From an uncultured delta proteobacterium (GTDB taxonomy: Bacteria; Desulfobacterota; RBG-13-43-22), in assembly GCA_963711835.1 (NCBI GenBank), contig CAVQFQ010000016.1:64001-128000 (forward strand): a stretch of DNA of 64,000 nucleotides, written 5' to 3'. This document shows, one piece after another, positions 6,985-34,815 of this stretch (within the stretch, counting starts at the first letter, position 1; each line of letters starts with the position of its first letter). The notes beneath the pieces are model-generated. The model had not been told where the DNA came from and searched no databases. It worked only from the letters and a program-made list of their open reading frames with translations. Both the position numbers and the translations under genes were made by a program.

Positions 6985-8088
6985 ATGGGAAGAGATATTC
7001 GGCTTGATATGATCAGGGGTTTGATTTTAATTTGGATGACGGTCAGCCACCTGGGAGAACCCCTTCGTCGTTATTCCTATGAGGGCCTGGGATTTATTTC
7101 GGTGGCCGAGGCCTTCGTCTTTATTTCGGGTTTGGTGGCCGGCATGGTTTATACCCGCATGGCCGAGCGGCTTTCCTACCAAGCCCTGAGCACGAGGGCC
7201 CGTCATAGGGCCAGAGACATCTATGGCTACCATCTATCGGTTTATCTGCTCATCCTGGTTCTGGTGAACGTAATCCAGGCCTTTTCTGATTCTTGGGGGC
7301 CGCGGTTTCCCCTTTTTACCGAATCTCCTCTAAAGGCCCTGGGCTTTGGCATCGTATTATTGTACCAACCCACGCTCATGGATATCCTGCCCATGTACTG
7401 CCTTTATATTTTATTCACTCCCCTTATTATTGATTGCTTCCAAAAAAATCGAACCGGACGTGTCTTTCTGGTCAGCCTGTCGGGATGGATCGTCTCCCAA
7501 TTCGGTATCTGGGGATGGATCCACCATGAAGCCATCCTAAAAGTCATTCCCTTAAACCTGGGTATTTTTGATTTTTTTGCCTGGCAATTCCTATTTATTG
7601 TTGGGCTGTGGTTTGGGTTTAAAAGACAAAAGGGGTATTCCTTTCCTTTTCTTCAAAAAAGACACCTCATCCTAGTCTGCTTTTTAGGGAGCCTGTTTTT
7701 TTTCCTGTTTAAACACCATTTGGTCCTGGATAATCTTTTCAAGTTAGATCTATACCCCTGGTTGGGAAGGCAATCTTTGGGTCCTCTCCGGCTGGTCAAT
7801 TTTTTTATGATCGTTTATCTCGTAACCGTTATTTCGGTCCGATTAAAAAGATACCTGGAATGGCGAGCCCTGGCTTTTCTGGGACAGCATTCCCTGCAAG
7901 TCTTTACCTTTCATGTCCTCCTGGTCTATTTGATGCTCACTTTCTATTATCGTCTCATCCCCCTGAGTTGGGTGATAATTATTCTTTTTAATTTGGTCGT
8001 CATCGCTGCCTTATTTATTCCTGCCTGGATCCATAGCCGTTATCGAAAAGAGACCAAAAAATTAGCCAAAGCCGACACCGTTGAGTGA
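6985..8088 (+). CDS. opgC: OpgC-domain protein (glucan succinyl/acyltransferase-like)
   Basis: RDIRLDMIRGL...SVAEAFVFISG...DILPMY...FFAWQFLF...LGPLRL...LGQHSLQVF, the OpgC family pattern. Confidence 0.82.
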   Translation: MGRDIRLDMIRGLILIWMTVSHLGEPLRRYSYEGLGFISVAEAFVFISGLVAGMVYTRMAERLSYQALSTRARHRARDIYGYHLSVYLLILVLVNVIQAFSDSWGPRFPLFTESPLKALGFGIVLLYQPTLMDILPMYCLYILFTPLIIDCFQKNRTGRVFLVSLSGWIVSQFGIWGWIHHEAILKVIPLNLGIFDFFAWQFLFIVGLWFGFKRQKGYSFPFLQKRHLILVCFLGSLFFFLFKHHLVLDNLFKLDLYPWLGRQSLGPLRLVNFFMIVYLVTVISVRLKRYLEWRALAFLGQHSLQVFTFHVLLVYLMLTFYYRLIPLSWVIIILFNLVVIAALFIPAWIHSRYRKETKKLAKADTVE

Positions 8089-8201
8089 TCCCTCTTTCAG
8101 CATCGCCGGCTTTCAATCTATAAAATATTTCACAAAATTATTATTGACAACTTATTGAATTGGAAAGAAAATAGTTCAAAACTATTTAAAAGGAGGAAAC
8201 T

Positions 8202-8402
8202 ATGGCACCAGCAAAAAAACCGGCGGCTAAAAAGACCGCGCTTAAACCGGCTCAAAAAGCCTCTTCCCGGGTAGGGAGCAAGTATGCCTGCAGCGATTGC
8301 GGCCTGGTTTTGGTGGTTGATGCAGATTGCGGTTGCGCCACGGTGGATCTGGTTTGCTGCGGCACGCCGATGAAGAAAAAAAGGGCGGCCTGCAAAAAAT
8401 AA
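8202..8402 (+). CDS. Small basic Cys-rich protein (PAKK tail plus desulforedoxin-like CxxC...CC metal site)
   Basis: AGGAGG RBS; YACSDCGLVLVVDADCGC...LVCCGTPMKKK. Confidence 0.8.
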   Translation: MAPAKKPAAKKTALKPAQKASSRVGSKYACSDCGLVLVVDADCGCATVDLVCCGTPMKKKRAACKK

Positions 8403-8521
8403 CCCCAGAGGCAATAGGTTATAGGGTTAAAACATTCCTTTAAAATTCAGCCTTTCGATTTTATCTGTTTTGCAAAACCGGCAGGGTTGATGTTTCTTTT
8501 GCGAAGAAGGGACTAAAGATA

Positions 8522-8552
8522 ACCGGCGATCCGCCAAAGGCGGACCGCCGGT
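8522..8552 (-). terminator. GC-rich hairpin downstream of the rhodanese gene
   Basis: accggcg-a-tccgcc-aaa-ggcgga-c-cgccggt between convergent genes. Confidence 0.5.
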
Positions 8553-8577
8553 CTAGAGGGAAGGTTGAGAGAGAGGT

Positions 8578-9945
8578 TTATTTATAACAGCAGAAAAATT
8601 CTTTGCCTTTTACGGCAATTTTATCATTCAGGAATCGGGCCTTGTAACCGCCGGCATTCCGGATAATATGGTAGCTCATTTCAGCCCGCAGACCTGTTTC
8701 GCAATGAATGATAATCTCTTTATCTTTGGGCAGTTCGGCCAGGCGCCCCTGGAGGCTGTCCAGAGGGATATTGATGGCCCCTTCCAAAACGCCTTCCGAG
8801 GCCTCTTCTTTGTTGCGGACATCCAGAATCAACTTATCCGCCGGGCGCACCTTAACCACATTCATAAACTCGTCGCCGGAGATCTCGCCCGGATGAGGAC
8901 GGGGGATGTAGAATATCGTCGTTCTGACCTCCCCTTTTTGAACGGGCCGATTTTTAGCCAGCCATCCTTCAAAGCCTCCTTCAAGAACCCGGATCCGTGA
9001 ATAACCCCAGGAGGTGATCATTTTTACTGCCGGCTGCAACTCCTTCCAGTCGGATTTGTCGGTGTATAGAATAATCGGGGCTTTTCGGTCGATCGGGAAT
9101 TGAACCTTTTCCTTTTCCAGATTTTTCAGATCCAAGGCCACCGCGCCCTGAATATGGGATTTCTTTGCTGCTTCAACCCCTCTCAGGTCCAATAGGACCA
9201 GGTAGCCCATCATTTGCTCCACAAAAGCACCATCGGTATAAAGGACATTACCTGTTTCACCCCAGACCGGAACGCCGGCATGGAACACCTTGACATTGGT
9301 ATAACCGAGTTTTTCTGCCTTCCTGGCAGCCATAGGACTAAGCACTCAGGTAAATCCCTGGCAGTAAAAAATGACCAATTGATTTTTGTCCTGGGGAAGC
9401 AGATTGGTCAACTTGTCAAAATTAGGGAAGGGCTGATTGACAGCTCCGGGGAGCCGCTCCTCCTGGAAACGGTAGGCCGGCCTGGAATCGAGCAGGGTAA
9501 ATTTTCCTTTCTCAGGCCCCAGATCCACCAGTTTCTTCATTTCCTCCACCGAGAGAATTTGGTTCTCCGGAACCTTGATTTTTGGTTTGACTACAACCTT
9601 ATCCGTATGCAGGCCATCCGGCTTTTCCTCGTAATAAACCTTAACGGACGCTTCAATCGGAATTTCCCTTAGACTGGGGGCATTTTCCACCTTGGTCCGG
9701 GGGTTGTATTTTACGGTCTGGACCTTTGGTCCGACCTTAACGGTAATCAAGCCGGCCAAGCGGGAGTAGGACTGAAAGTCCCCCAAAATCAATTTCTGTT
9801 CAGCCGGATAACTGTGGCAGTTGACACAGTTGGGCGCCCGGAAGGCGGTCACATCGCTCGCCGCCGGGGTTTCGCCGGACAGGTAGAAAAGACCCACCGC
9901 CGGGATCAAGAATCCGATTACATAGGATAGCCATCGCGTTTTCAT
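8578..9945 (-). CDS. Exported heme-c (CxxCH) / multi-rhodanese sulfurtransferase with in-frame UGA (selenocysteine), 455 aa
   Basis: ORFs 9346-9945 and 8578-9345 are in one frame, separated only by TGA at 9346-9348: FYCQGFT-U-VLSPMAARKAEKLGYTNVKVFHAG. Signal/TM segment, CVNCH, three rhodanese domains (last one HCETGLRA). Confidence 0.85.
9315..9329 (-). promoter_or_regulatory. Putative bacterial SECIS hairpin
   Basis: On the minus strand, 16 nt after the UGA: CUGCC-AGGAA-GGCAG stem-loop with G in the loop. Confidence 0.6.
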
Positions 9946-9948
9946 AAT

Positions 9949-10203
9949 TCAGATATTCCTCCTTTTTTGAATGTATAAACTATAGGACCCGCCTTCCCTG
10001 CCGGTCCCAATCAAACACTCGTCAGCCGAACGGGATACCATAGTCAACAGATCATTCCGTACCCCGTCATTATTGACCACGACCTCCAGGACGCCCCCTT
10101 CCGGTATTTCCTTCAATCGTTTTCGAAACTGCAGCAAAGAGATGGGACAATCCAGGTTTCGGATATCCAAAACAAGGTCGGGCCGACAATTAACATCCTT
10201 CAT
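9949..10203 (-). CDS. TusA/SirA family sulfur carrier protein
   Basis: VLDIRNLDCPISLLQFRKRLKEIPEGGVLEVVV...YSLYIQK, a TusA-type CP motif. Confidence 0.85.
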   Translation of the reverse strand: MKDVNCRPDLVLDIRNLDCPISLLQFRKRLKEIPEGGVLEVVVNNDGVRNDLLTMVSRSADECLIGTGREGGSYSLYIQKRRNI

Positions 10204-10288
10204 CTCTGGATCTTTTCCTCCCACTGGGCACAGGAGCCGGGATGGGGGCGGGTGCGACCAAAGATTGTACTAAGAGGTTTTTCTTCAT
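10190..10288 (-). CDS. Unannotated 32-aa Pro-rich peptide ending in EGC
   Basis: MKKNLLVQSLVAPAPIPAPVPSGRKRSRDEGC*. Strong AAGGAGG RBS; first ORF after the sigma54 promoter; overlaps the TusA start. Confidence 0.6.
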   Translation of the reverse strand: MKKNLLVQSLVAPAPIPAPVPSGRKRSRDEGC

Positions 10289-10356
10289 AACTTCAATTTC
10301 CCTCCTTTCTTCCGGTAGCTGAAAGAATTAGAGACCAAATTCTTTTTCTTAATAAA

Positions 10357-10372
10357 AGCAACTTCCATACCA
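10357..10372 (-). promoter_or_regulatory. Sigma54 (-24/-12) promoter of the peptide-TusA-rhodanese operon
   Basis: Minus strand TGGTATG-GAAG-TTGCT matches TGGCACG-N4-TTGCW; a divergent enhancer-binding protein gene is adjacent. Confidence 0.8.
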
Positions 10373-10520
10373 AATTTATTATTGATCTTTAAAACAAATT
10401 AACTTATTAAAATCTATTATATTATCCTTTCAGATACTTCTGTTAACTCTGTTCGGGATGTTGCTTATTGACGTTAACATAATTAACATGTATTAACCTA
10501 TTTAGTTAAACATGAATTAA

Positions 10521-10776
10521 CCTCGAAGTTGCATAAAAATTGATCGATAAAGAGTTTTTTATCAATCAAAACAATTTGTTCTGACGATTTTGGCATTGGG
10601 GCCAAAATTCACCCGGGGTGAGGTGCGGCATTTAAAAAATTATCGATCAATTTTTACCCTTCGGGAAAGTCTGGGAGGCCGCATCTCCTTTGTTGTCCAG
10701 GACTCGCAGTATGCGTATACAGCGTCGCCCTGGACGTCTCGGATCTGCAACCTCCGAGACTTTTACAACATCGAGG
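10521..10776. mobile_element. MITE (256 bp) upstream of the sigma54 activator
   Basis: Terminal IRs CCTCGAAGTTGCATAAA / TTTTACAACATCGAGG, TAA on both sides, internal IRs (taaaaattgatcgataa / ttatcgatcaattttta; aaagtctgggaggccgca / tgcaacctccgagacttt). Confidence 0.6.
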
Positions 10777-10802
10777 TAAACTGGCGGGGAAAGGATTAGC
10801 CT

Positions 10803-12175
10803 ATGAAACCGGAAGATTGTTCCCTTTACTGGGAGTCGGTAGTCGACAATATGGTGGACGGCTTACTTATTGTGGATACTGAAGGAACTATCATATTTAT
10901 CAATCCTGCGGCCGAGATCATCACCGGTTATAAAAAAGAGGAAGTGGTCGGCCTGCCCTGCACGGTCTTCGAGAGCGATACCTGCATGCTTTCCACCCCC
11001 AACGGAACCGTCAAGCGCTGCAATCTCTTCGAGCAGGGCATTGTCACCCGCAAACGCTGTATGGTCAAACGGAAGGATGGTTCCGCCGTCTATCTGCTCA
11101 AAAACGCCACGGTGCTTCGCAATGTCCAGGGCGAGGTGATCGGCGGGGTTGAAACCCTGACCGACATCACCCAACTGCTCAAGAAGGATCAGGAGATTGA
11201 ATTTCTCAAAAAGGAATTGACCCAGGAACACGGCTTTCACGGCCTGATCGGGAACAGCTCCTCCATGCAGCAGGTCTTTGATTTAATCAAAAACGCCGCC
11301 GAATCCGAAGCTCCGGTGGTCATCCTGGGGGAAAGCGGCACCGGCAAAGAACTGGTCGCCGCGGCCATTCATAAGCTTAGCCAGCGTCACAAGGGTCCCT
11401 TTATCAAGGTCAACTGCGCTTCACTGAATGAATCCCTTCTGGAAAGTGAACTTTTCGGGCATGTAAAGGGGGCCTTTACCGGGGCCGAGCGGAACCGGAT
11501 CGGGCGTTTTGAAGCCGCCAATCGGGGCAGTATTTTTCTGGATGAGATCGGGGACATCCCCCCTTCGGTTCAGGTCAAACTGCTGCGGGTGGTCCAGGAA
11601 AAAGAAATCGAACGGGTCGGAAGCCACGAGCCTATAGGGGTTGATGTGCGATTGATTTCAGCCACCAATAAAGATTTGAGAGGGTTGATGGACATGGGAC
11701 ATTTTCGGGAGGATCTCTACTACCGCCTGAATGTCATCCCCATTGCCATCCCGCCTTTGAGGGAAAGAAAGGAAGATATCCCCTGGCTTACCGAGACCAT
11801 GATTCGAAAAATCGCCTTGCGCAGCCAGCGACCTATTCAGGGGCCTTCATCCGGAGGCCATGGAATTGATGATGAACTACCCCTGGCCGGGCAATGTGCG
11901 GGAACTGATTAACGTCCTGGAATATGCCTTTGTGGTCTGCAAGGAGAAAGTGGATCAAACCGGAGCACCTGCCGGCCTATCTGAACCAGAAGCCGGGTCG
12001 TTTCCAGGCCCTGGAATCTCGCAACTCCAAAATCGCCGCAGAGGAGCCGGAAAAGATCCGCCTTCAAAAAGCCCTGGATCAGGCCGGAGGGAAAAAGTCC
12101 GAGGCCGCCCAGGCCCTGGGCATCAGCCGGGTGACCTTGTGGAAGAAGATGAAAAAGTTTAATCTGTCCCCATAG
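10803..12175 (+). pseudogene. PAS-AAA+-HTH sigma54-dependent activator (Fis family), interrupted by two +1 frameshifts (possibly sequencing errors)
   Basis: PAS domain, GESGTGKE, ESELFGHVKGAFTGA, FLDEIG, FREDLYYRL. WPGNVREL and the HTH (AAQALGISRVTLWKKMK) continue in other frames after about 11840 and 11948. Confidence 0.88.
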
Positions 12176-22371: not shown

Positions 22372-23736
22372 TTATGCCTCCTTTTTTTGATAATGCTTTT
22401 CCCAGGCCGCATCGGCCAATTCCCCATAACGCGCGGCAAACTGATCGATCTCCGGGGCCAGATCGGAAAAGATAGTTTCCGCGCCGGGATGGGTAAAATG
22501 GGCCCCGGTTTCATAGGCCATCCTTCTACCCATATCAGGCCGGTCCACCAGCATGCAGGGCCGGAGCAGGTTTTTCTGTAAAGGCTGCTCGGTCCGGATG
22601 GCCTTAAATAGAGGAGAATTTAAGGCCTCCCGAAGGGGGGTCTCTTTGATATTGTGCATGGCAATATGGCAAAAAACGCAGGGCTCCACGTCCCCCTGGG
22701 CATTGATATGAAAATATTTTCGAGCGCCGGAAATGCAGCCGCCGACCACCGGGCCGTCATTCCAGAAATCGGCTACCAGAATCGGCCGGGTGGCCCTGAT
22801 TTGGGCCACCCGCTCCCGAAGGGCGTCCCGTTGCTCCGGGGTGGGCATAAGCTGGATGTTGGGTTCCCTGCCGATGGGCAGATACATGAAGAACCAGCCC
22901 AATAGGCAACCCTGATCAATAAGAAAGTCCATAAATGGTTCGCTGGTGATGGTATCATGATTCAGCCGGGTCTGGGTAGCGGAAAAGCCGAAAATAATCC
23001 CGGCTTCTTTTAAGCTTTTCATGGCCTGGAGGACCCGCTCAAAATGGCCTGCGCCCCGTCGTTTGTCCGTTTCTTCCTGGAACCCTTCCAGACTGATGGA
23101 TGGGAGTATATTGCCGCATCGGGCGATCCGCTCCGCCAGGCGCTGGTCGATGAGGCCGCCATGGGTATAGACATGAAAAATCATGTCATGGTGTTGCTCA
23201 AAGATGTCAAAAATATCCTGCTTGAAAAAAGGTTCGCCTCCGGAGACCACGCAGGCATAAATACCCATTTCATTGGCCTGATCCAAGGCCTGGTGGATGA
23301 TTTTAGTGGGTAATTCTGCCCCCTTATCATAACTCCCGGCATAACAACCGAAACATTTCAGATTGCATTTCATGGTCGGGCTTATGACCAGAAACCCGGG
23401 CGGATAAAAACCTCCCTCCAGTTCTGAAAAGGCCTTCCTTTTGTTGGTCCCTTCCAATAACTGGTTGATGATCAGGGTCTGGATGATGGTCTTGCGATGA
23501 TGGGGATTGGTTCGATAAAGGATTTTCTTGGTTACTTCCAGGCAGGGGTGGTTTTGATCGAAAAGGTCCCGGATCCAATTGATCCAGTCGATGTAATAAT
23601 CCTTTCTGACCAACAGAGCAGCCAGGCGGGCGATCTGGGTGTAGGTCCAGCGAAATTTTTTTTCATCAGTGGTCCGGGATAAAGCCGCCAGTAAGAGATT
23701 GATGCTGTTGGCAATGGCTTGGTTTCTTAGCGACAT
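22372..23736 (-). CDS. Radical SAM/SPASM domain protein
   Basis: CNLKCFGC, SGGEPF, GCISGARKYFHINAQGDVEPCVF. Confidence 0.9.
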   Translation of the reverse strand: MSLRNQAIANSINLLLAALSRTTDEKKFRWTYTQIARLAALLVRKDYYIDWINWIRDLFDQNHPCLEVTKKILYRTNPHHRKTIIQTLIINQLLEGTNKRKAFSELEGGFYPPGFLVISPTMKCNLKCFGCYAGSYDKGAELPTKIIHQALDQANEMGIYACVVSGGEPFFKQDIFDIFEQHHDMIFHVYTHGGLIDQRLAERIARCGNILPSISLEGFQEETDKRRGAGHFERVLQAMKSLKEAGIIFGFSATQTRLNHDTITSEPFMDFLIDQGCLLGWFFMYLPIGREPNIQLMPTPEQRDALRERVAQIRATRPILVADFWNDGPVVGGCISGARKYFHINAQGDVEPCVFCHIAMHNIKETPLREALNSPLFKAIRTEQPLQKNLLRPCMLVDRPDMGRRMAYETGAHFTHPGAETIFSDLAPEIDQFAARYGELADAAWEKHYQKKEA

Positions 23737-23744
23737 TGGTTATA

Positions 23745-24224
23745 TTATACCGCCTTCCATAAATAGGCCAGGGTTTCACCCAGGCCAAGCAAAAGAAAAC
23801 AACCGACCAAGGACCCGGTTATTAAGATCAGATAAGAAATCTTCTTGGGTATTTTCAGGGAAAAGGCCATCAATACCCCGCTCCACATCCCGCCCCCCTT
23901 TACCGGCATGACCGTGATCAGAAAGACCCCCAGGCCTTTCCAGGCCGACCAGGCCCGCCAGGCCCAGGATTGTTGTCTTCCCACCCCTTTTTGAGTCAGC
24001 CACCGGTTCAATCGGGAAAAACCCGGGAAGCGCACGGCTCCTTCATAGAGCCGATAAAAAAGAGGGATTTGTAACCCATCCAACAAAACGATCAGGGGTA
24101 AAAAAAATAAAAGATTTTGTCCCAGCCACTGGGCACTTAGGATAGCCGCGGTCCGGCCTCCTAAGACATAAAGGCCGAAAAAATAAAACAGATAGGTTTG
24201 CTTAATCCATTCCAGCCATTCCAT
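23745..24224 (-). CDS. Small membrane protein (putative small multidrug export family)
   Basis: TM helices; GVFLITVMPVKGGGMWSG resembles that family's LPxxGxWxG motif. Confidence 0.6.
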   Translation of the reverse strand: MEWLEWIKQTYLFYFFGLYVLGGRTAAILSAQWLGQNLLFFLPLIVLLDGLQIPLFYRLYEGAVRFPGFSRLNRWLTQKGVGRQQSWAWRAWSAWKGLGVFLITVMPVKGGGMWSGVLMAFSLKIPKKISYLILITGSLVGCFLLLGLGETLAYLWKAV

Positions 24225-24415
24225 AAAGGTTTTTGTTGAAGAGGCCTGCGCTCCTGCTTAATCCTATTCTGTTATAACCTAACCGTCCTAACCATCCATA
24301 ATCATACTGACTTTACCCAGGCAGCCCCTCCGGTTATAACCATTTATGAGACTGTAAGTAAGATGGTTTAAGTTTAATTTATAGCCGTCTCTTTTGCAAT
24401 AAGATTTATCAGGGC

Positions 24416-25606
24416 TTAGGTCCTCTGGATCCGCTCGTGGAGAAGCCGCCGCATGTCCTGATCATATAATAAGGTGATCAGGGTCAGCAGGCGCCCCAGG
24501 ACCGGGAGAGGGTCCCCAGATTGGTAAAAATCATGAGCCGTATTTTTATCAAAAAACCGAAAAAAGGAGGGCTTCATTCGAAAACGTTCAGGATTTTGAA
24601 TAAAATGAAGTAAATCCCCGGGCAGAATCCAGCGGCAGCGCTTTCCTAAATCATAGCCTTCCATTTTCTCGATCGGCTGTTCCAAGGCCATTTGAAACAA
24701 AAGATAAGGGAAGTCCACCCCGGCATAAACGGCCAGGGGCAATGAACCCCAAAACCGGGGGTTGATCTCCATCAACTTGGGTCTCCCATCCCTGGGATCA
24801 TAACGAAATTCCACCATGGCCACCCCAAACCAGCCCAAGGCTCTTAAAAGAGATTCCCCTAACCGGTGTACTTCCGGGTCGTAACTACTTTCCCGCAAGG
24901 TGCTCGGCCCGCCTTTGACAGGATATTCCCGGATGCGTTTATGGATAAAATAGGCCAGCGGCTCCTGGTCCGGCCCAAATAGGAATGAGGCCCCGAGGGC
25001 CTGCCCTCCCGGGGGTATGAATTCTTGAATCAGCGGTAAGGGATATTTCCGATGGACCTTCTGGTAGGCCGGCCAGAAGTCTTTTTGATCATAGACATAG
25101 ACGATTCCAGTGGAACCGGAGCCGATGCGGGGTTTGATAACGGCCGGAATCGGAACCTCCGGAAAAAGGTCCGGGACCGCGTCCAGGCTTTCCGGGAAAA
25201 GGGTCTTGGGAATGGGGATTCCGATTTTCAGGGCCAGCCGAAGAACCTCGTCTTTGCGGCGGGCCTGATCCAGGGCGGAAAAACCGGTGAAGGGAATCCG
25301 GGTATGGGGTTCCAGAAGAGAGCGATGCCGGGCGATGAGGAGAGTAGTCTGTTCTTCCATAGGGATCAGGACCTCGTAAGCCCGGCTTTTTACTTCCTTG
25401 ATCAGGGCTTCCAGAAAGGCCTCGGGATGGAAATAGGGGGAAGGATAGACCCATCTCCGGGAACAATACCGTGAGAAAAAGGAAGTGGCGATGGGAGTAC
25501 TTTCCCCGACCGTTACCCGGATGCCCCTCCTGCCCAGAGAACGGGTTGCGGCCAGGGTCTTGGCCCAATGGCCATCCGTCAATAAGACACGGGTTTTATT
25601 TCTCAT
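24416..25606 (-). CDS. ATP-grasp domain protein (carboxylate-amine ligase)
   Basis: VIKPRIGSGS, LIQEFIP, MVEFRYDPRDG, LMEINPRFWGS. Confidence 0.88.
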   Translation of the reverse strand: MRNKTRVLLTDGHWAKTLAATRSLGRRGIRVTVGESTPIATSFFSRYCSRRWVYPSPYFHPEAFLEALIKEVKSRAYEVLIPMEEQTTLLIARHRSLLEPHTRIPFTGFSALDQARRKDEVLRLALKIGIPIPKTLFPESLDAVPDLFPEVPIPAVIKPRIGSGSTGIVYVYDQKDFWPAYQKVHRKYPLPLIQEFIPPGGQALGASFLFGPDQEPLAYFIHKRIREYPVKGGPSTLRESSYDPEVHRLGESLLRALGWFGVAMVEFRYDPRDGRPKLMEINPRFWGSLPLAVYAGVDFPYLLFQMALEQPIEKMEGYDLGKRCRWILPGDLLHFIQNPERFRMKPSFFRFFDKNTAHDFYQSGDPLPVLGRLLTLITLLYDQDMRRLLHERIQRT

Positions 25607-27392: not shown

Positions 27393-28646
27393 TTGCCCCC
27401 TCTTTTACCTCTGCTCCGCCTCTCCCTCTCCCAGTTATCCTATTATAAAAGCCGCTACCTGATCATGGGTCTGCTGCTGGTTTCAGGGTCTTTGATCCTC
27501 TTCCTTTCATTGAGCTATCTTGTTTCCGTCCAGGCTTCCATCCGGGAAGGGCTGGTTTCCAGACTGACCGGGCACCTGCAACTTTATAACCCGGCGGTTA
27601 AAGAGGTATCTTTCTATCAGGATCCAACGGGGCAGATCCCCTGGATTCAGGACCCGGAAGCGCTGGAAAGGATCCTTACAGCGGTCCCGGGGTTGGCCGG
27701 TTTCACCAAAAGGATCCTGGTCGGCGGCCTGCTCCAGAAAGGGGACCGGTCCATGGGGGCCTTAGTGGCCGGAATGGAGATGAATAAAGAGATCGCCCTC
27801 AGGGGGAAAATTTCTCCTCTTTCCCTTTCGGGGATGATCTCCATCCGGGAAGGGGAGGTCTTGCTCGGAAAAGGGGTAGCCAAGGTTTTACGGGTGGCCC
27901 CAGGCGAAAAGATCCCTCTGCTGGTCCCCAATGAATCCGGCTTTATCAGCGGCCGGCGATTTCTGGTCAGGGGTTTATTCAGCACCCCGGGTCTGGATCC
28001 CGTTGCCGAACTCTTTGTTTACCTGAACTTGTCGGATCTCCAGCATTTATTAGGTCTGGAAAAGGAAGTGGGCCATTTCGTCCTTTTTGCCGAAAAGGAA
28101 ACCCGGATAAATTCCCTGACGGCTTCTCTGGCCCATCGCTTTAAAGCGCTTCACCTGCCGGTCAGCCTCTTTACCTGGGACGAGATCGGGAAACCTTTCT
28201 TAGGGATTTTAAGTCTGAGCCAAATTTTTTTCGGCCTGACCAACCTTCTTATCCTGATTATCATCGCCCTCACGGTTGTCAATTCCACCCTGATGAACCT
28301 CTTTGAAAGGATGCCGGAACTGGGCACCCTCTTAACTCTGGGGACGAAAAGAAGCCAGCTTTTTATTTTTCTCGGGGGCGAAATTATTCTCTTTGGATCA
28401 GCAGCCGCCGTGGCGGGTTTGTTTCTGGGATGGATTTTGAGCACGATCCTGGGGCAATGGGGACTTCCAGCCCTGAATCCGGCCATGGCCATGGCTTTCG
28501 GCCAGGAACGATTATACTTCAAAACCAATATCTGGGTCTGGCTCTTGTCTTTTGGGGCTTCCTTTCTGTTTTTAGTGCTCTCGGTCGGGGTCCCGATAAG
28601 CCGGGCCTGCCGTCTGAATCCGGCCGAGGTCTTAAAAGAGAGATGA
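27393..28646 (+). CDS. ABC permease, FtsX/LolE family
   Basis: TGHLQL, MNLFERMPELGTLLTLG, LNPAEVLK. Confidence 0.85.
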   Translation: MPPLLPLLRLSLSQLSYYKSRYLIMGLLLVSGSLILFLSLSYLVSVQASIREGLVSRLTGHLQLYNPAVKEVSFYQDPTGQIPWIQDPEALERILTAVPGLAGFTKRILVGGLLQKGDRSMGALVAGMEMNKEIALRGKISPLSLSGMISIREGEVLLGKGVAKVLRVAPGEKIPLLVPNESGFISGRRFLVRGLFSTPGLDPVAELFVYLNLSDLQHLLGLEKEVGHFVLFAEKETRINSLTASLAHRFKALHLPVSLFTWDEIGKPFLGILSLSQIFFGLTNLLILIIIALTVVNSTLMNLFERMPELGTLLTLGTKRSQLFIFLGGEIILFGSAAAVAGLFLGWILSTILGQWGLPALNPAMAMAFGQERLYFKTNIWVWLLSFGASFLFLVLSVGVPISRACRLNPAEVLKER

Positions 28647-29881
28647 AGGCCTTTCTTTTTACAAAAATGGCCTGGAATAATCTCCGGCGATACCGGCGAC
28701 GGACGATCCTGGTGGGGTTGACCATCCTGCTCTCATCGGCGGTCTTAATTTTTAACAACTCGCTCGGAAACGGCATAGAGGAACAGTTGATCCAGAACAT
28801 GGTTTATATCCAGACCGGGCATATTGTTTTGACCCCCCAAGCCGACAGCCGGGACCCGGCCACGGAGACGGTCCGCTGGCAACCTTTACCCCCCGGGCTT
28901 AGCACCTTCCTGGCCTCCGATCCCCGTCTGCGCGGCATCCATCCCCGCTTGGAATCGGCGGCCCTTTTGACCGCCAACAATCAAACCATTACCCGGGCTT
29001 TTTTGGTAGGATTTGATCCTCGGGAAGAAGCGGCCTTCTTAAAGACCAGGCTTCCTATTTTACAGGGAAGCCCCTTTTTGAGTTCGGCCTCCAAGGCGAT
29101 CTTCCTTAGCCAGGAATATGCCCGGCGCCTGAAGGTCGGCCTAGGCGATCCGGTAACCCTGACCATCCATAATCCCCGGGGAGAAACCCGGATGAAGGAT
29201 TTTCAGCTTGGCGGCCTATTCAGGAAAGCCAATCCCTGGCAGGAGTTTTTTGTTTTCGCCCCCCTGGATGAGGTTCAGGATCTTTTCGGAACACCGAACC
29301 AGATCAGTTCGGTCCGTCTGATTCTGCATAAGGTCCCGGATGTGACTCGGGTCAGAAACGATCTCCAGGCTTTTATTACTAAGTGGCAGTTGCCCTGGAC
29401 GGTCAAAGGTTTTCAGGAAGTGGGGGGGTTCTCTTTGGGTATCATCCAGGCCAATAATTTTTCGATTGTCTTGATGGACAGCCTTCTTCTCCTGATAACC
29501 GCCATAGGCATCAGTCTGCTGATCCTTTTATCGCTTCAGCTCCGAGTTAAGGAGATGCGTATACTTTCTTTGCTGGGGACGCCGCCGGGATGGCTTCTTT
29601 TCAGCGTAATCCAGGAGGCCCTTTTGTTGGGGCTGCTTTTCGGGGGCCTGGGATTGGTCATGGGTTGGGGCCTGGCCTGGTATTTTCAAAACACCGGAAT
29701 CCGGATCACCTCCCTTCCCATTACTTACCTTCTGGGTGGGGATAGCCTGAGGCCCCTGATCCGCCTCCAGGGTATGGGAAAGGTTTTTTCCCTCCTCCTG
29801 GGGATCTGTTTTTTTTCCGCCCTGCTGCCCATGATCAACCTCCTCTGGGCCTCCTCTAAAAAAAGGGCCCGATCTGTTTAA
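28643..29881 (+). CDS. ABC permease, FtsX/LolE family
   Basis: KMAWNNLRRYRRRT, QTGHI, RVKEMRILSLLG. ATG overlaps the previous stop. Confidence 0.85.
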   Translation: MKAFLFTKMAWNNLRRYRRRTILVGLTILLSSAVLIFNNSLGNGIEEQLIQNMVYIQTGHIVLTPQADSRDPATETVRWQPLPPGLSTFLASDPRLRGIHPRLESAALLTANNQTITRAFLVGFDPREEAAFLKTRLPILQGSPFLSSASKAIFLSQEYARRLKVGLGDPVTLTIHNPRGETRMKDFQLGGLFRKANPWQEFFVFAPLDEVQDLFGTPNQISSVRLILHKVPDVTRVRNDLQAFITKWQLPWTVKGFQEVGGFSLGIIQANNFSIVLMDSLLLLITAIGISLLILLSLQLRVKEMRILSLLGTPPGWLLFSVIQEALLLGLLFGGLGLVMGWGLAWYFQNTGIRITSLPITYLLGGDSLRPLIRLQGMGKVFSLLLGICFFSALLPMINLLWASSKKRARSV

Positions 29882-29885
29882 GGAG

Positions 29886-30647
29886 ATGACCATGTTCAAA
29901 AAAAGGAAAAGCCCTGCCTGGGTTCGGTTTGCTTTAGGCCTCCCTGGATTGGTCTTGTTCCTATTTATGGCTGCCACAACCGTTATGGGAGAGGAAGTTT
30001 TGACCAATCCGGAATCCTTGCTGAACCGGTTTAAGCCTCTCGTGGCCCCCGAGACCTTTAAGGCCGTCCTTCATCTGGAGATTCAGAGACCGGATCGGCC
30101 TTTAAAAAAATATGAACTGGTCGTATGGCAGAAATCGCCGGACCTGGTCAAGATCGTCTTCCAGGCGCCGGCCTCAGAAAAGGGTAAATTTTTGCTCAAA
30201 AAAAAGGACCAGGTTTTTTTATCCCTGCCCGACCTGGAGGAGACCATCTTATTATCCCCGGCCCAGCTCAGCGGCTGGAACTTCTTTTTTGCCGAGAACC
30301 TTTTCCCCTTTTATTTTACCAGGGAGATTCTCTGGGGGGAAAGCCGCCATACGCCGGAGTCCCTGATTCTATCCATAATTCGCAAAACCGACCGCTCCCT
30401 TTGGGTGGAAGCCGCCCTTCTTAAACCGCAGGGCCCCTTAACCGGAGTCACTCTTTATGAACCCTCGGGTAAAAAAATCCGAACCGTGTCCCTGACCTGG
30501 GATTCTTCCGCGGGAAGCGAAAGGCTCAAGGCCCTGAGCATAGAAAATTTTTACCCGGACTCTTATCGAGCCAAAATAGGGATCGAAGATCTCCGCACCA
30601 GGCCCGTATTTCCGGACCGGTTTTTTGAATTAGGGACAAAGCCGTAA
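29886..30647 (+). CDS. Outer membrane lipoprotein-sorting (LolA-like) protein
   Basis: Signal peptide, FQAPASEKGKFLL, FPDRFF end; follows two LolE-like permeases. Confidence 0.7.
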   Translation: MTMFKKRKSPAWVRFALGLPGLVLFLFMAATTVMGEEVLTNPESLLNRFKPLVAPETFKAVLHLEIQRPDRPLKKYELVVWQKSPDLVKIVFQAPASEKGKFLLKKKDQVFLSLPDLEETILLSPAQLSGWNFFFAENLFPFYFTREILWGESRHTPESLILSIIRKTDRSLWVEAALLKPQGPLTGVTLYEPSGKKIRTVSLTWDSSAGSERLKALSIENFYPDSYRAKIGIEDLRTRPVFPDRFFELGTKP

Positions 30648-30717: not shown

Positions 30718-31569
30718 TCAGGATCCGGATGCGGAAACCAGAATCTCGTTTACCCAATCCATCATCCTTGGTGTAATCTCGTTGTAAACGACCTGGTAGG
30801 CGCGGATTTTTTTACTTAACGAAGTAATGAAGGGAAAGCCGTGGCCGGACAGGTTCCTGGCATTGACCAGCCGTTGAAGAAGCATGAAAGCCGCTTGGGC
30901 CTGGGAGAGAGGCTGGACCCGGAAGGGTTGGTCGGTCTGATATCGGGGAAAGATCAGGATCCGAGGGCGTGCCGACCGGCAGATCCCGCCACCCCGGAAC
31001 AATTCAGGGTCTATCCAGGTCTCACCGCTGAAGAAGGTCTCCGGCGCCTCTCGTCCCTCTGAAGCCACTTTCTCTTTCCAGGAAAGCCCCGAACCGCCTT
31101 TCAAAATGACGGGTCTGGGCAGACCGGATAACACCTCATCTTTTAGACGAACGGCTATGATTTCATCGGTCAGGTAATCAAAGCCCGAAGATACCAGTTG
31201 GGCGGTCAGGGTTGATTTTCCGCTGCCGCTGTCTCCGCAAAGGATGATCCCCTGTTTGTCCCTGGCCACCCCGCCGGCATGAAAAACCGCCTGGCCACAG
31301 GAATGGGCGATCAGACTGCCTACTGCTTCCTGCATCAATCTCCAGAACAACCGGTCGGCAGATAAATCGTGGCCTACCAGGATCTCCCCCTTCCAGAGCT
31401 CAAAGGTGTCGTCCATCTCTCTGTTGATGTGAAAAATAACCGCCGGGGAGACGGCCCGGGCCGGCAGGCAATGGCGAAAATGGCGGCCGAGCCGGCTCAG
31501 GATAACCGGATCCTGGCCTTCTATTTCCACACTTACCTCGCCGAACTGGAGGACCAGGGGGTCAGCCAT
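30718..31569 (-). CDS. HPr kinase-related Ser/Thr kinase
   Basis: FHAGGV, Walker A GDSGSGKST, YLTDE, IFPRY. Confidence 0.85.
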   Translation of the reverse strand: MADPLVLQFGEVSVEIEGQDPVILSRLGRHFRHCLPARAVSPAVIFHINREMDDTFELWKGEILVGHDLSADRLFWRLMQEAVGSLIAHSCGQAVFHAGGVARDKQGIILCGDSGSGKSTLTAQLVSSGFDYLTDEIIAVRLKDEVLSGLPRPVILKGGSGLSWKEKVASEGREAPETFFSGETWIDPELFRGGGICRSARPRILIFPRYQTDQPFRVQPLSQAQAAFMLLQRLVNARNLSGHGFPFITSLSKKIRAYQVVYNEITPRMMDWVNEILVSASGS

Positions 31570-31578
31570 GGTTTAGGA

Positions 31579-31851
31579 TCAATCCAGGACCAAGACCCTG
31601 GTTTCAACAAAAAGCTGCAGGGTCTCATTCACATCCTCTTTAATCTGCTCGGCGGACTCCGGATAGGCTTCGCTCAGGAGCTGCTTGATCTCAGCTACGG
31701 TTCGTTGACCGTCACAGAGTTTCCAGATCAAAGCGGCGCTGGGGTTGCTGTGCAGGACCTGGGTGCTGTCCGGATGAATAAGGACCAATTCGCCTTCCAT
31801 GATTTCGGCTTGGCAATCAGGAACAGGCCTGGGACGGGCGGTTTCCAGCAT
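31579..31851 (-). CDS. PqqD family protein (RiPP recognition element)
   Basis: EIMEGELVLI...NPSAALIWKLCDGQRTVAEI...DVNETLQLF. GAGGAGG RBS before ATG 31851. Confidence 0.92.
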   Translation of the reverse strand: MLETARPRPVPDCQAEIMEGELVLIHPDSTQVLHSNPSAALIWKLCDGQRTVAEIKQLLSEAYPESAEQIKEDVNETLQLFVETRVLVLD

Positions 31852-31894
31852 AGGTTCCTCCTCAGGGAGCATTCGGCCGTCAGCAGACAGCACG

Positions 31895-31927
31895 CATCCG
31901 GAAAAGATCTTTTCCGGATGGACACTA
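31895..31927. repeat. Perfect 26-bp palindrome / MITE-end remnant
   Basis: catccggaaaagatcttttccggatg followed by gacacta, the same end as the MITE at 25679-25821. Confidence 0.6.
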
Positions 31928-31969
31928 ATTTAATTAAATTCTTTATAAATCGCAACCGGAAAGACCTTT

Positions 31970-33055
31970 TCAATGAATCAAAGGCAGGGATACTTTGGAA
32001 GCCAGGCGACCGTAAAGACGCCGCAGGACAAATTTAAAGAGAAAGAGAGGATGTTTGACCCAGCGGGCGGTGAAAAGAGAACGGCCGGGGGCAAGGCCAT
32101 AGTAAAGGTGGAGCCACCATTCCGAGGGAAAGAGGGTTTCCTTTAAAAATCCCCAAAGCCCTAAGTTCTTCCATTGCCGGAAGGTGATGCGGGGCCAGCC
32201 CTTGAATTCCTGTCCTATGTCTTTAGGGGCCTCCCCCGGTTTGATGGAAAACCGCTTGACCAGTTTTTCAGAAAGAGGGCTGAGGCAGTGAAACAGGGAT
32301 AGGATTCCCTGGAGGGAGGGAAGCATTTGAATCAATCGCTCCCAGTCCATCTCGTCCTCAAACTGCTCACTTATATTTATCAAATCGGTTAAAGCGATGA
32401 GCCGGGCCTGTTCGACGGCCATGTGCCGGTAGATATGTCGGAACATATCCTCCAGGGCCAGGGTGTGGGCCGTGAGCCCTTCGAAAGAAAATGGCCTGGC
32501 CCTGGCCATAAGATCGTCCACCAAAGGTTGCCCGGGGTCCCATTCCTCTTCAATAAGGCTAAAATGGACCTCCAGGGTCATTTCATAGCCGCTTACGCGG
32601 GAGGTAAGGGCCGGAAGGTGCTTTGAAGATCTGGGCTTTTTTAATTCGGCAGGATGGACGGTAAAGCCCAAGTCGCCCAGCAGGATTTCCATGACCGGGG
32701 CCTGGCTGGGATGGACCAGCAGATCCAGATCGCGCATGGGGCGCAGACCCGGTTCCGGATAGACCAGATGGAATAAGGCGGCCCCCTTGAGCAGGATCAA
32801 CTGCACCCCGGCCTTTTCACAGGCTGGTATAATTTTGGTCAGAAGACCGGTGCGGATCTGGTTGGCCTGGCGGTGACGCAAGGTGAGGGCCTGCAGTTGA
32901 CGGCGAGTAGTTTCGGGAATTTCAAGGCCGGCATTACGGCAGTGGAAATAAAAAAGGGGGGCCATCCCCTGCTCTTCGGCAAAGGGGATGAGATTTACCC
33001 ATTGGGAGAATCCCTGGAATTGTTCTTTTAATAACAGACCCTGCACCCGGTCCAA
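31970..33055 (-). CDS. Nucleotidyltransferase family protein (NTP_transf_5 type)
   Basis: LILLKGAAL, RPMRDLDLLV, LEVH. Start uncertain because the frame is open further upstream. Confidence 0.88.
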   Translation of the reverse strand: MDRVQGLLLKEQFQGFSQWVNLIPFAEEQGMAPLFYFHCRNAGLEIPETTRRQLQALTLRHRQANQIRTGLLTKIIPACEKAGVQLILLKGAALFHLVYPEPGLRPMRDLDLLVHPSQAPVMEILLGDLGFTVHPAELKKPRSSKHLPALTSRVSGYEMTLEVHFSLIEEEWDPGQPLVDDLMARARPFSFEGLTAHTLALEDMFRHIYRHMAVEQARLIALTDLINISEQFEDEMDWERLIQMLPSLQGILSLFHCLSPLSEKLVKRFSIKPGEAPKDIGQEFKGWPRITFRQWKNLGLWGFLKETLFPSEWWLHLYYGLAPGRSLFTARWVKHPLFLFKFVLRRLYGRLASKVSLPLIH

Positions 33056-33120
33056 CTTCGACCGGGCACAGGGTATTAAAATCTTAAACAGTGATTCCGT
33101 CTTAGTAAAGAAAGCGGCAA

Positions 33121-33729
33121 TTACCTGCGGCGCATCGGTGATTTTTGACCACCAATTATTGAACGGATACCGCTAGTTGGCGTAATCGTCCCCACTGGAA
33201 ACTCAACGTTACAGATGTTGTAACCGGTTGACGTACTTGCAGCAGTTAAAGTTATCGTAAAAGTTTGGGTAATGGCCCGGGCTTTTACCCGGACCGTACA
33301 CGGGGTAGAGGTGGCGGGGACAGCGTCGCTACTATAATAGACGAGGTATATCTGGTAGATGCCAGCCGCCGTATTATTGATGGGAACAAAGATGTTCTCG
33401 GGGCCAAGCCCGCAGGTATTATCAAAGTCTAACGTTGCTGTTGGTCCAACTTTATTTGCATAATAAACATGAGCTCCAAGCGGTTCGATGACATGAAGGT
33501 CAATATCAACCGACGAACCTACACAGGTTGGATCTCCGGTAGTCCAGGTCAAAGTGGCCTGAAAATCACCGGTCCCCAAAGAGGCCTGGGCAAAGGCCGG
33601 CAGGGCGCCTATGCCGACTACGGGCTTTTCCCAGCCGGGCAATAGGGAAATGGTCGTGGCCCCGGCGGCGGCGGATAAAACTTTAAGAGCCTTACGACGT
33701 GACATGGATTGGTCTTTTGGTTCGCTCAT
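33121..33729 (-). CDS. Tat-signal protein with WxxP leader motif and YfaP/DUF2135-like cargo domain; putative substrate of the cassette
   Basis: SRRKALK...LLPGWEKPVVGIGALPAFAQAS, then LTWTTG...DIDLHVIEP...LDFDNTCGLGPENI. AAGGAGG RBS. Confidence 0.8.
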   Translation of the reverse strand: MSEPKDQSMSRRKALKVLSAAAGATTISLLPGWEKPVVGIGALPAFAQASLGTGDFQATLTWTTGDPTCVGSSVDIDLHVIEPLGAHVYYANKVGPTATLDFDNTCGLGPENIFVPINNTAAGIYQIYLVYYSSDAVPATSTPCTVRVKARAITQTFTITLTAASTSTGYNICNVEFPVGTITPTSGIRSIIGGQKSPMRRR

Positions 33730-33795
33730 CGTATCCTCCTTTAAAAAAATAGTTGTACCTATTAGAATTTAAAATATAACCTTTCAGGCTTCTTT

Positions 33796-33824
33796 ATATT
33801 AAAATCAACTAAAAATCAAGTCAA
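33796..33824 (-). promoter_or_regulatory. Putative sigma70 promoter of the cassette
   Basis: Minus strand TTGACT-N17-TAATAT. Confidence 0.5.
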
Positions 33825-34143: not shown

Positions 34144-34815
34144 ATGGAGATCGTCCGATTAGAAGAAGTTTCTAAAGAATATGTTCTTAAGGGAGAAACC
34201 ATCCGGGTTTTAAGCCGGGTATCGTTTACCGTCCAATCCGGAGAATTTGTGGCCCTCATGGGACCCTCGGGGAGCGGGAAAACCACCCTGCTGCACCTGA
34301 TCGGCTGTGTGGATCTGCCCACCTCGGGCCGCATCAGCCTGGGAGGCCAGGAAACCTCAGCCTTAAACCCGGCCCGGTTGGCGGAGATTCGATTAAATCG
34401 GCTGGGCTTTATATTCCAGGCCTTCAATTTATTACCGGCCATGACGGTCCTGGATAATTGCGCCTATCCCTTGATTCTACAGGGGGTCCCTTTTCGGGAA
34501 AGAAAGCAGAGGGTGGAGGCCATGCTTTCCCGGGTGGGCCTGGCCCATCGTCTGAAACACAGGCCCGAAGACCTCTCGGGAGGGGAGCAGCAAAGGGCGG
34601 CCATTGCCCGGGCCTTGGTCACCCGACCGCTCTTGGTCCTGGCCGATGAACCGACGGCCCACCTGGATGCCGAAACCGGCCAGGAGATCATCGACCTGAT
34701 GTACCGCCTGAACCGGGAGGAAAAGATAACCTTTCTATTCGCCACCCACGACCCGGCCATCCTGACCCAGGCCGGTCGTATCCTCAAACTGTCCCAGGGG
34801 AGAATTACAGAGTAG
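34144..34815 (+). CDS. ABC ATP-binding protein (LolD/MacB-like)
   Basis: GPSGSGKT, LSGGEQQR, LADEPT. Confidence 0.92.
   Translation: MEIVRLEEVSKEYVLKGETIRVLSRVSFTVQSGEFVALMGPSGSGKTTLLHLIGCVDLPTSGRISLGGQETSALNPARLAEIRLNRLGFIFQAFNLLPAMTVLDNCAYPLILQGVPFRERKQRVEAMLSRVGLAHRLKHRPEDLSGGEQQRAAIARALVTRPLLVLADEPTAHLDAETGQEIIDLMYRLNREEKITFLFATHDPAILTQAGRILKLSQGRITE

Follow-up and report, generated by a model that had tools for sequence, protein, structure and literature searches.

A portable twin-arginine leader with a predicted RRE-docking motif, encoded with its candidate modifying enzymes by an uncultured delta proteobacterium

Results

The cassette and its enzymes

The window analysed here is a stretch of 64,000 nucleotides from an uncultured delta proteobacterium (assembly GCA_963711835.1, contig CAVQFQ010000016.1, positions 64,001 to 128,000). 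Its minus strand holds a four-gene cassette, a minimal system made of a substrate protein, a transferase, a stand-alone recognition element of ribosomally synthesised and post-translationally modified peptides (RRE and RiPPs, respectively) and a kinase. The leader of the substrate, called the tag below, resembles signals of the twin-arginine translocation (Tat) pathway. The four genes had been proposed in a reading made from the letters only (the sequence-only reading) and all four are real minus-strand open reading frames (ORFs). The genes and the parts of the substrate are:

33121..33729, minus strand: tagged substrate gene, 202 residues, predicted as a 47-residue Tat-type leader plus a 155-residue mature protein (ORF, 57 homologues and alignment)
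31970..33055, minus strand: NTP_transf_5 transferase of the PsmN/LppN type, DLD at 109-111 (Pfam E 2e-40, over cut-off)
31579..31893, minus strand: stand-alone RRE of the PqqD family (Pfam E 1.5e-16, over cut-off)
30718..31569, minus strand: HPrK-like kinase, His97, Walker A 112-120, D135-E136 (best match TIGR04352)
33580..33705, minus strand: portable tag, residues 9-50 (42 residues), with twin Arg, h-region, WxKP, PAxA and Q-x-S (leader searches and alignments)
33694..33699, minus strand: twin arginine R11-R12, putative Tat motif (sequence)
33622..33633, minus strand: W33-x-K-P36, predicted RRE-docking motif at -15/-12 (invariant in 49 homologues; register of PbaA)
33589..33597, minus strand: A45-F46-A47, predicted cleavage site of signal peptidase I (Ala in 76/79 homologues at each of -3 and -1)
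33580..33582, minus strand: Ser50 (+3), predicted phospho-acceptor (Ser/Thr in 79/79; analogy with LppA S3)
33160..33579, minus strand: folded all-beta core, residues 51-190, YfaP/DUF2135-like (AlphaFold block, predicted local distance difference test score 83-98)

The kinase is HPrK-like yet lies below every family cut-off. It scores 101.6 bits against TIGR04352 (HprK-related kinase A), for which the cut-off is 200 and a true member reaches 382, and its clade is separate from that family in a quick tree (Shimodaira-Hasegawa-like approximate likelihood ratio test 97), so that membership in TIGR04352 was rejected. Its His97, Walker A and acidic pair are presumably the catalytic motifs, an assignment that draws partly on general knowledge of HPrK. 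Mutants of PsmK and PsmN back the catalytic motifs assigned to the kinase and to the transferase (DLD), respectively (PMC6993621).

The best match of the RRE family profile in the Protein Data Bank (PDB) is LppB (9x8z), whose residues N33, Y60 and D70 have retained equivalents. LppB belongs to the system for linear polyphosphorylated peptides (LPP), lppA-K-B-S-D-N of Paenibacillus alginolyticus, published in 2026 (PMC13381572). Sets of RRE, kinase and transferase lacking a cyclase are thus no longer functionally uncharacterised, as the sequence-only reading still had them. The LPP RRE binds YxxP at -16/-13, Ser+3 (S3 of LppA) is polyphosphorylated by the kinase, and removal of the leader falls to a signal-peptidase-type enzyme (PMC13381572). 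A structure prediction for the complex of our RRE with the tag gave a median score of 0.31 against a mark of 0.32, with controls at 0.00, and is used as evidence neither way.

Conservation of the tag

The motifs SRRKALK, WEKPVV and AFAQAS are all present in the substrate, ahead of a core with four Cys. Searching with the whole protein gave 57 matches, query included; in an alignment of 49 homologues found in this way W33, P36 and P44 are invariant, and so are acidic residues of the core. The twin arginine and WxxP occur together in 79 of 88 stored proteins, and a Ser or Thr stands 17 residues after the Trp (+3 past AxA) in all 79. The tag consensus is W-x-K-P-x-V-x4-L-P-A-H/F-A-Q-x-S/T with an upstream RR, and the window leader satisfies the lasso-type pattern WxxPx[LV] (W33-x-x-P36-x-V38). 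The first 50 residues are a portable tag that, judged from sequence, likely serves both as RRE dock and as Tat export signal.

The 155-residue core contains 4 Cys, 23 Thr, 11 Ser and 7 Tyr. Its earlier assignment to a YfaP/DUF2135-like domain comes from homologues, which match PF09906, while the window protein itself matches neither PF09906 nor any other Pfam family; its placement in a DUF2135 cluster of the Atlas at 0.87 is a lead only. AlphaFold predicts a disordered leader and a confident all-beta core (51-190) beginning right after Ser50. The closest fold is TerD, a calcium-binding beta-sandwich, with a modest match (Foldseek 2kxt, E 5e-4, template modelling scores 0.44/0.50, 15% identity), and no sequence relative of the substrate was found in the PDB. 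Among P0004-P0006 the leaders are 98% identical and the cores 54-56%, and the same core also occurs in longer proteins without the leader. At metagenome loci of the substrate family, several of them near-duplicates or short contigs, a partner gene is present in 11 of 16 with the leader, in varying order, versus none of 6 without a leader match. The Thr/Ser/Tyr-rich domain, formerly taken as the modification target, was rejected as the main one because only the +3 position is conserved across unrelated cores; the target is likely the single residue Ser50, at +3 after AFA.

Among 199 distinct tagged ORFs, 176 have RR, 20 have KR or RK and 3 have neither. With 14.9 the window protein stays under the cut-off of the TIGR01409 Tat model (16.7), its S/T-R-R-x-x-L-K motif, h-region and AxA being present; that cut-off is passed by six of the seven tagged homologues scanned (P0050, P0058, P0062, P0071, P0075 and P0077) and failed by P0006. 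These figures bear on the idea that the tag docks the enzymes but is no Tat signal, its RR helix being a recognition surface and the protein remaining cytoplasmic, or membrane-tethered and uncleaved. Such a role would fit the 23 tags that have KR/RK or lack a basic pair, which cluster in Poriferihabitaceae and Arenicellales, as well as the score of the window leader and a subfamily that lacks AxA and keeps Ser+3. We nevertheless consider it unlikely in view of the RR in 176/199 tags and in 150/150 top library matches, the TIGR01409 results of the homologues, the retention of AxA, the extracellular types of the cores, the lack of a recurring dedicated exporter and the presence of TatC in RK-variant genomes.

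The subfamily without AxA comprises P0049, P0051, L015 and L017, retains WxKP together with Ser+3 and possibly stays uncleaved. KR or RK replaces RR in L034, L069, L072, L078 and L092-L095 (Poriferihabitaceae, Arenicellales), and TatC is found in 5/5 RK-variant genomes. Elsewhere, in G301, L222:2804-3145 encodes a possible sister tag in which RR is followed by YxxP, 5' of an RRE and a distant kinase.

The tag on unrelated proteins

A leader-only search found the tag on unrelated cores. Diverse C-terminal domains behind the leader, as envisaged in the sequence-only reading, were indeed recovered: the cores of the 199 ORFs span 9-801 residues, and the 136 of at least 60 residues fall into 88 clusters. 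We also scanned 22 of the 64 parts of GTDB with a DNA pattern, W-x-K/R-P-x6-L-P-A-H/F-A-Q, from which the RR and the +3 residue were left out, and obtained 124 loci. Among its 146 motif rows, which include repeats from overlapping loci, 145 have Ser or Thr at +3 (17 after the Trp); a strict rule finds RR upstream in 117. Three of the loci look like chance matches; L049 and L122 lack RR, and L060 and L071 have no in-frame row.

At E<=1e-10 the tag profile matches 1,916 protein clusters (50% identity); relaxing the threshold to 1e-3 gives 4,850, among which there are probably plain Tat signals. In the best 150 library matches the tag is always N-terminal and always has RR, and the window core occurs in none of them. 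A Pfam match was obtained for 14 of 100 tagged proteins (fasciclin, fn3, cadherin/Ig, glycine-rich, Peptidase_S74, collagen-like and DUF2135). All 14, and a YVTN propeller core as well, are of extracellular or repeat type; the collagen matches may reflect low complexity. In three loci (L050, L075 and L083) the tagged peptides have long stretches of Thr or mucin-like repeats of Thr/Ala/Pro.

Copy numbers were counted in 50 tag genomes, a set that is biased to multi-copy genomes and was drawn from about 60 picked only for a tag without the adjacent trio of RRE, kinase and transferase. They range from 1 up to 54 per genome, reached beside a single kinase gene, with a median of 5, and 14 genomes have at least 10. 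The highest values, 45-54 tagged genes, were found in G089, G065, G069 and G066, which are metagenome-assembled genomes (MAGs) of Arenicellales-type Gammaproteobacteria. The window genome has a single substrate, and elsewhere one enzyme set stands beside dozens of tags. Many genomes spread the tag over many genes, apparently served by one enzyme set in trans, which the sequence-only reading had missed. In other bacteria the tag stands on as many as about 50 unrelated proteins, nearly always with the same RRE and kinase.

The cargo also bears on whether the product is an ordinary LPP-like RiPP, in which a short modified peptide would be the active part and the folded domain a trimmed passenger. 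Cores of at most 60 residues occur in 24 of 161 closed tagged ORFs, and LPP precursors measure 35-200 residues (PMC13381572). Such a product seems quite improbable, given that 124 of the 161 cores exceed 100 residues, that the window core folds confidently right after Ser50 and has invariant acidic residues, and that no protease recurs nearby.

Co-occurrence of the tag with the enzymes

The association of the leader with PqqD, kinase and nucleotidyltransferase, foreseen from the window, holds across phyla: the system occurs in Chloroflexota, Pseudomonadota, Thermodesulfobacteriota and others. Thiohalocapsa marina DSM 19078 and Arenicella sp. 4NH20-0111 (loci L124 and L131) are carriers in culture. 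In the first 80 pattern loci all three enzymes lie within 6 kb in 12, and one or two of them in 6 more. The 50 tag genomes contain the kinase in 45 cases at E<=1e-15, 44 at 1e-35 and 41 at 1e-50, mostly as a single copy. Around 30 kinase loci of tag genomes, the RRE was found in 28 and the transferase in 25 within 1.5 kb.

We then scored an unselected set of 750 genomes, made up of 150 from the class of G073, 300 from the phylum of the window and 300 from the class of G066 (the centres being left out), with thresholds of E<=1e-50 for the kinase and E<=1e-6 for the tag. The kinase was detected in 11, the tag in 12 and both in 11. Per sample the kinase/tag counts were 6/7, 2/2 and 3/3, in the same genomes except for G250, where a diverged tag without a close kinase adjoins an RRE. 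A distant kinase (E 1e-31 to 1e-40) without any tag was seen in 16 further genomes; 12 of these 16 kinases were placed on a quick tree and form one branch, and the one tested is a TIGR04352 member.

These results weigh on the possibility that the trio acts on a lasso or other precursor whose gene lies elsewhere, the 202-residue gene being a mere neighbour. Of the 50 tag genomes 28 have a B2-type peptidase (PF13471), the window has a radical SAM/SPASM gene 7 kb away, and its genome is 89% complete, which leave some room for it. It is largely refuted and we give it very little credit: the window genome lacks PF13471, its two long Asn-synthase frames score best with exopolysaccharide amidotransferase/AsnB models and far below the lasso cyclase cut-off, the B2 peptidase never lies at the kinase locus and is absent from 5/5 single-chromosome assemblies, the co-occurrence of tag and kinase is near perfect, and the RRE can be fused to the tag. 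A lasso peptidase is not needed.

The B2-type genes of those 28 genomes (in the set G061-G110) are unlinked to the trio and perhaps represent a second RRE system. As claimed before, the cassette contains no gene for a cyclase, a B2 peptidase or a radical SAM enzyme, nor any other same-strand frame of at least 60 residues except an 81-residue overlap. The radical SAM/SPASM gene (window 22372-25606) has a 110-residue N-terminal extension, stands near an ATP-grasp gene and is under all NCBIfam cut-offs; it was rejected as a partner on account of its distance and because none was found among 102 neighbour ORFs. The window genome contains one RRE, one tag and TatC twice; no SipW-type peptidase (TIGR02228) was found in it.

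Fusions and neighbouring sugar enzymes

One genome encodes an RRE fused to the tag (P0089). In P0050 the RRE is fused in cis, through a variant RR leader without the Trp, to a window-type core, and this leader appears from its sequence to be a second class. RRE and kinase are fused in L209, transferase and kinase in L210. Fusions of the kinase with sugar enzymes were seen at six loci, four of which had been chosen for long frames: with glycosyltransferase (GT) family GT2 in L096, L157 and L184, with GT2 and GT25 in L206, with a FUT8-like enzyme in L207, and in L107 of a Verrucomicrobia MAG (7841-11788), where a 1,316-residue protein joins kinase, fucose pyrophosphorylase and GHMP kinase. In 5 of 8 further loci, one of them in G018 from the family of the window, the trio is bordered by glycosyltransferases. 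No exporter or protease recurs in the trio neighbourhoods scanned. At L207 (G065:C1:3400000-3413000) an RRE-tag fusion stands among PF11397 and GT7-like transferases, a sulfotransferase and two kinase fusions.

Another explanation is that export is gated by a mark, either transient or a nucleotide: the RRE would mask the Tat signal as a proofreading chaperone does, and kinase and transferase would place a phosphate plus nucleoside monophosphate (NMP) near the cleavage site with no glycan. The transferase does belong to a nucleotidyltransferase family and has a DxD motif, and the window cassette is devoid of glycosyltransferases. Moreover, phosphate can gate processing, as LppS cuts the unphosphorylated precursor poorly (PMC13381572), and signal-peptide masking has been proposed for bufferins (PMC12452194). 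This gating is nonetheless improbable in our view: the only product seen for the transferase family is a hexose on phosphate (PMC6993621), and the kinase-glycosyltransferase fusions, like the adjacent GT4, GT2, GT10, PF11397 and sulfotransferase genes, point to sugar. By analogy, the nucleotidylation formerly ascribed to the transferase is not upheld either, its only characterised relative being needed for hexose and not NMP.

Expression signals and flanking genes

Three further features accompany the genes:

33735..33740, minus strand: strong Shine-Dalgarno AGGAGG before the start of the substrate gene (sequence)
33796..33824, minus strand: weak sigma-70-like site, 9/12, candidate promoter (consensus match only)
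33038..33074, minus strand: 15-bp hairpin directly 3' of the substrate gene (z -5.3 versus base shuffles)

The cassette had been credited with its own promoter. The AGGAGG ahead of the start is strong, but the promoter comes down to two weak 9/12 sites; sigma-70-like sites number 6 against 2.5+-1.5 in shuffles. A hairpin after the substrate stop, with z from -2.4 to -5.4, was found in 9/9 homologous loci examined and could possibly be an attenuator or a stabiliser of the mRNA. The true start of the transferase is probably 30-70 nucleotides upstream of TTG 33055, because its frame stays open on the 5' side and homologues start about 10 residues ahead of a conserved 'CAR'. In window 33056-33125 this open frame has no ATG, GTG or TTG, and a non-standard start overlapping the substrate stop is possible. 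RNA runs gave only short pieces of relatives at 88-97%, in three sediment libraries of one study, and no expression evidence for the locus itself.

The cassette is flanked by LolCDE/MacB-type permease genes on one side and their ATPase on the other. This plus-strand set (two MacB/LolCE-type permeases, a LolA-like gene and the ATPase; 27393-30647 and 34144-34815) is interrupted by the cassette, which suggests an insertion. Being of the opposite strand, of the LolCDE/MacB type and not recurrent, these ABC genes were rejected as a dedicated exporter.

Comparison with known systems

The cassette shares with LPP a discrete RRE together with an HprK-like kinase and an NTP transferase without a macrolactam cyclase, precursors with a conserved N-terminus and a variable C-terminus, a Y/WxxP motif about 15 residues before a signal-peptidase-type cut, and Ser at +3. 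It differs in that the SipW-like LppS is absent (TIGR02228: none in the window genome, 0/5 chromosomes over the cut-off), one S26 gene being found in 1 of 19 neighbourhoods, and in that the window cassette has no MsbA-like LppD. The LPP leader, YxxPxVLxHQxIxFETxxS, agrees with the tag only in the aromatic-x-x-P and the +3 Ser; the tag has a twin Arg and an h-region, ends in AxA and not FET, has W and not Y, and allows Thr at +3. LPP clusters have 1-3 substrates and the tag system up to 54, dispersed and with mostly folded cores. LPP is moreover described as confined to Bacillota (PMC13381572). A term search for 'Tat' and 'twin-arginine' gave no occurrence in the main text and six supplements of that paper. 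As the LppS peptidase, the LppD exporter and the leader consensus all fail, the cassette would work like LPP yet is not a member of it, and a Tat-type signal appears, from its sequence, to stand in where LPP has its peptidase and exporter.

Phosphorylated and phosphoglycosylated lasso peptides (paeninodin with PadeK; pseudomycoidin with PsmK/PsmN, PMC6993621) have the same three tailoring families and DxD in the transferase, and WxxPx[LV] at -15/-12/-10 as in PbaA, whose W-15/P-12 register (PMC13381572) is that of the window tag. They differ by a cyclase and B2 peptidase and by an acceptor that is a C-terminal Ser, whereas here it would lie near the mature N-terminus of a protein product. For bufferins, RiPPs made by multinuclear non-haem iron-dependent oxidases, preliminary data led to the proposal that the RRE-containing partner recognises a sequence which includes a Sec signal, and that this signal is masked until modification (PMC12452194); there the signal is Sec and not Tat, the RRE is fused to DUF2063, Cys is oxidised and WxxP is missing. 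In HPr-rel-A (TIGR04352/TIGR04353) an HprK-related kinase also adjoins an NTP_transf_5-like gene, but it forms a separate kinase clade and its genomes lack this tag.

PEP-CTERM/exosortase and prochlorosin ProcM are familiar cases in which a single enzyme set acts on many tagged proteins or precursors per genome, and Tat chaperones of the TorD/DmsD type hold a Tat signal until maturation. Unlike these, the present tag is N-terminal; an RRE would read it, and it is predicted to guide the phosphorylation of Ser/Thr. Searches of mostly open-access literature yielded no description of this tag and enzyme system.

Discussion

We propose, with a probability of roughly 0.65, that the RRE docks on the tag, the kinase phosphorylates Ser50, the transferase probably caps the phosphate with a sugar and Tat exports the protein. 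We infer these steps from the LPP register, the LppB-like RRE and the role of PsmN, that is, by analogy with LPP and pseudomycoidin. Docking of the RRE on WxKP is highly probable. Phosphorylation of Ser50 (+3) by the kinase in the cytoplasm is likewise probable, and to a slightly lesser degree so are Tat export of the folded protein and its cleavage by signal peptidase I after Ala47. For capping of the phosphate with a sugar before export, the weakest step, the odds would be about even. After maturation we would expect an extracellular, TerD-like beta-sandwich that bears a phospho- or phosphoglycosyl-Ser three residues from its N-terminus. The Tat route would suit a cargo kept in the cytoplasm until it is modified.

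Several observations weigh against this proposal. On the export side, the window leader is 47 residues long, has a modest h-region (peak Kyte-Doolittle mean 1.55) and falls under the TIGR01409 cut-off, 23 of 199 tags have no RR, and P0049 and P0051 have no AxA. As for the co-occurrence, five of the 50 tag genomes have no kinase and one only a weak partial match (MAGs), the profiles were built from the same families with G099 in the training set, and in the unselected samples 9-48 candidates were scored per genome among related genomes that are not independent. Against the sugar speak the finding of sugar enzymes in only 3 of 17 trio loci not picked for long frames, the lack of a glycosyltransferase in the window cassette and in the Chloroflexota trio loci scanned, and an lppN deletion that had no effect in LPP (PMC13381572); PsmN is required for hexose addition to the pseudomycoidin phosphate, its exact role being open (PMC6993621). 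Finally, LppB F74, which divides two pockets, corresponds to Thr91 in the window RRE, and LppK refuses Thr (PMC13381572), versus Thr in 58 of 199 tags here.

Beyond the cassette, we tentatively consider, at somewhat less than even odds, a general phosphoglycosylation pathway in which one RRE-kinase-transferase set reads a transplantable 42-residue Tat tag. In each genome up to dozens of folded surface proteins would receive a phospho-linked glycan at their N-terminal Ser/Thr, and lineage-specific glycosyltransferases would extend that glycan. We regard the system as a variant of LPP-type tailoring, and possibly as a general protein phosphoglycosylation system. Since the kinase-glycosyltransferase fusions point to phospho-linked glycans, the tag system may give the missing context for the NTP_transf_5 family. 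In Arenicellales-type Gammaproteobacteria, the strong expansion of the tag to 45-54 copies suggests that the system has a part in decorating surfaces.

If the proposal is true, a removable export signal that tolerates any cargo and also docks the enzymes would be a handy tool for site-specific protein phosphorylation. About 1,900 clusters of hypothetical proteins (in a sample of 100, 86 have no Pfam family) would gain a function, and RRE-guided modification would reach beyond short peptides to an entire class of exported proteins.

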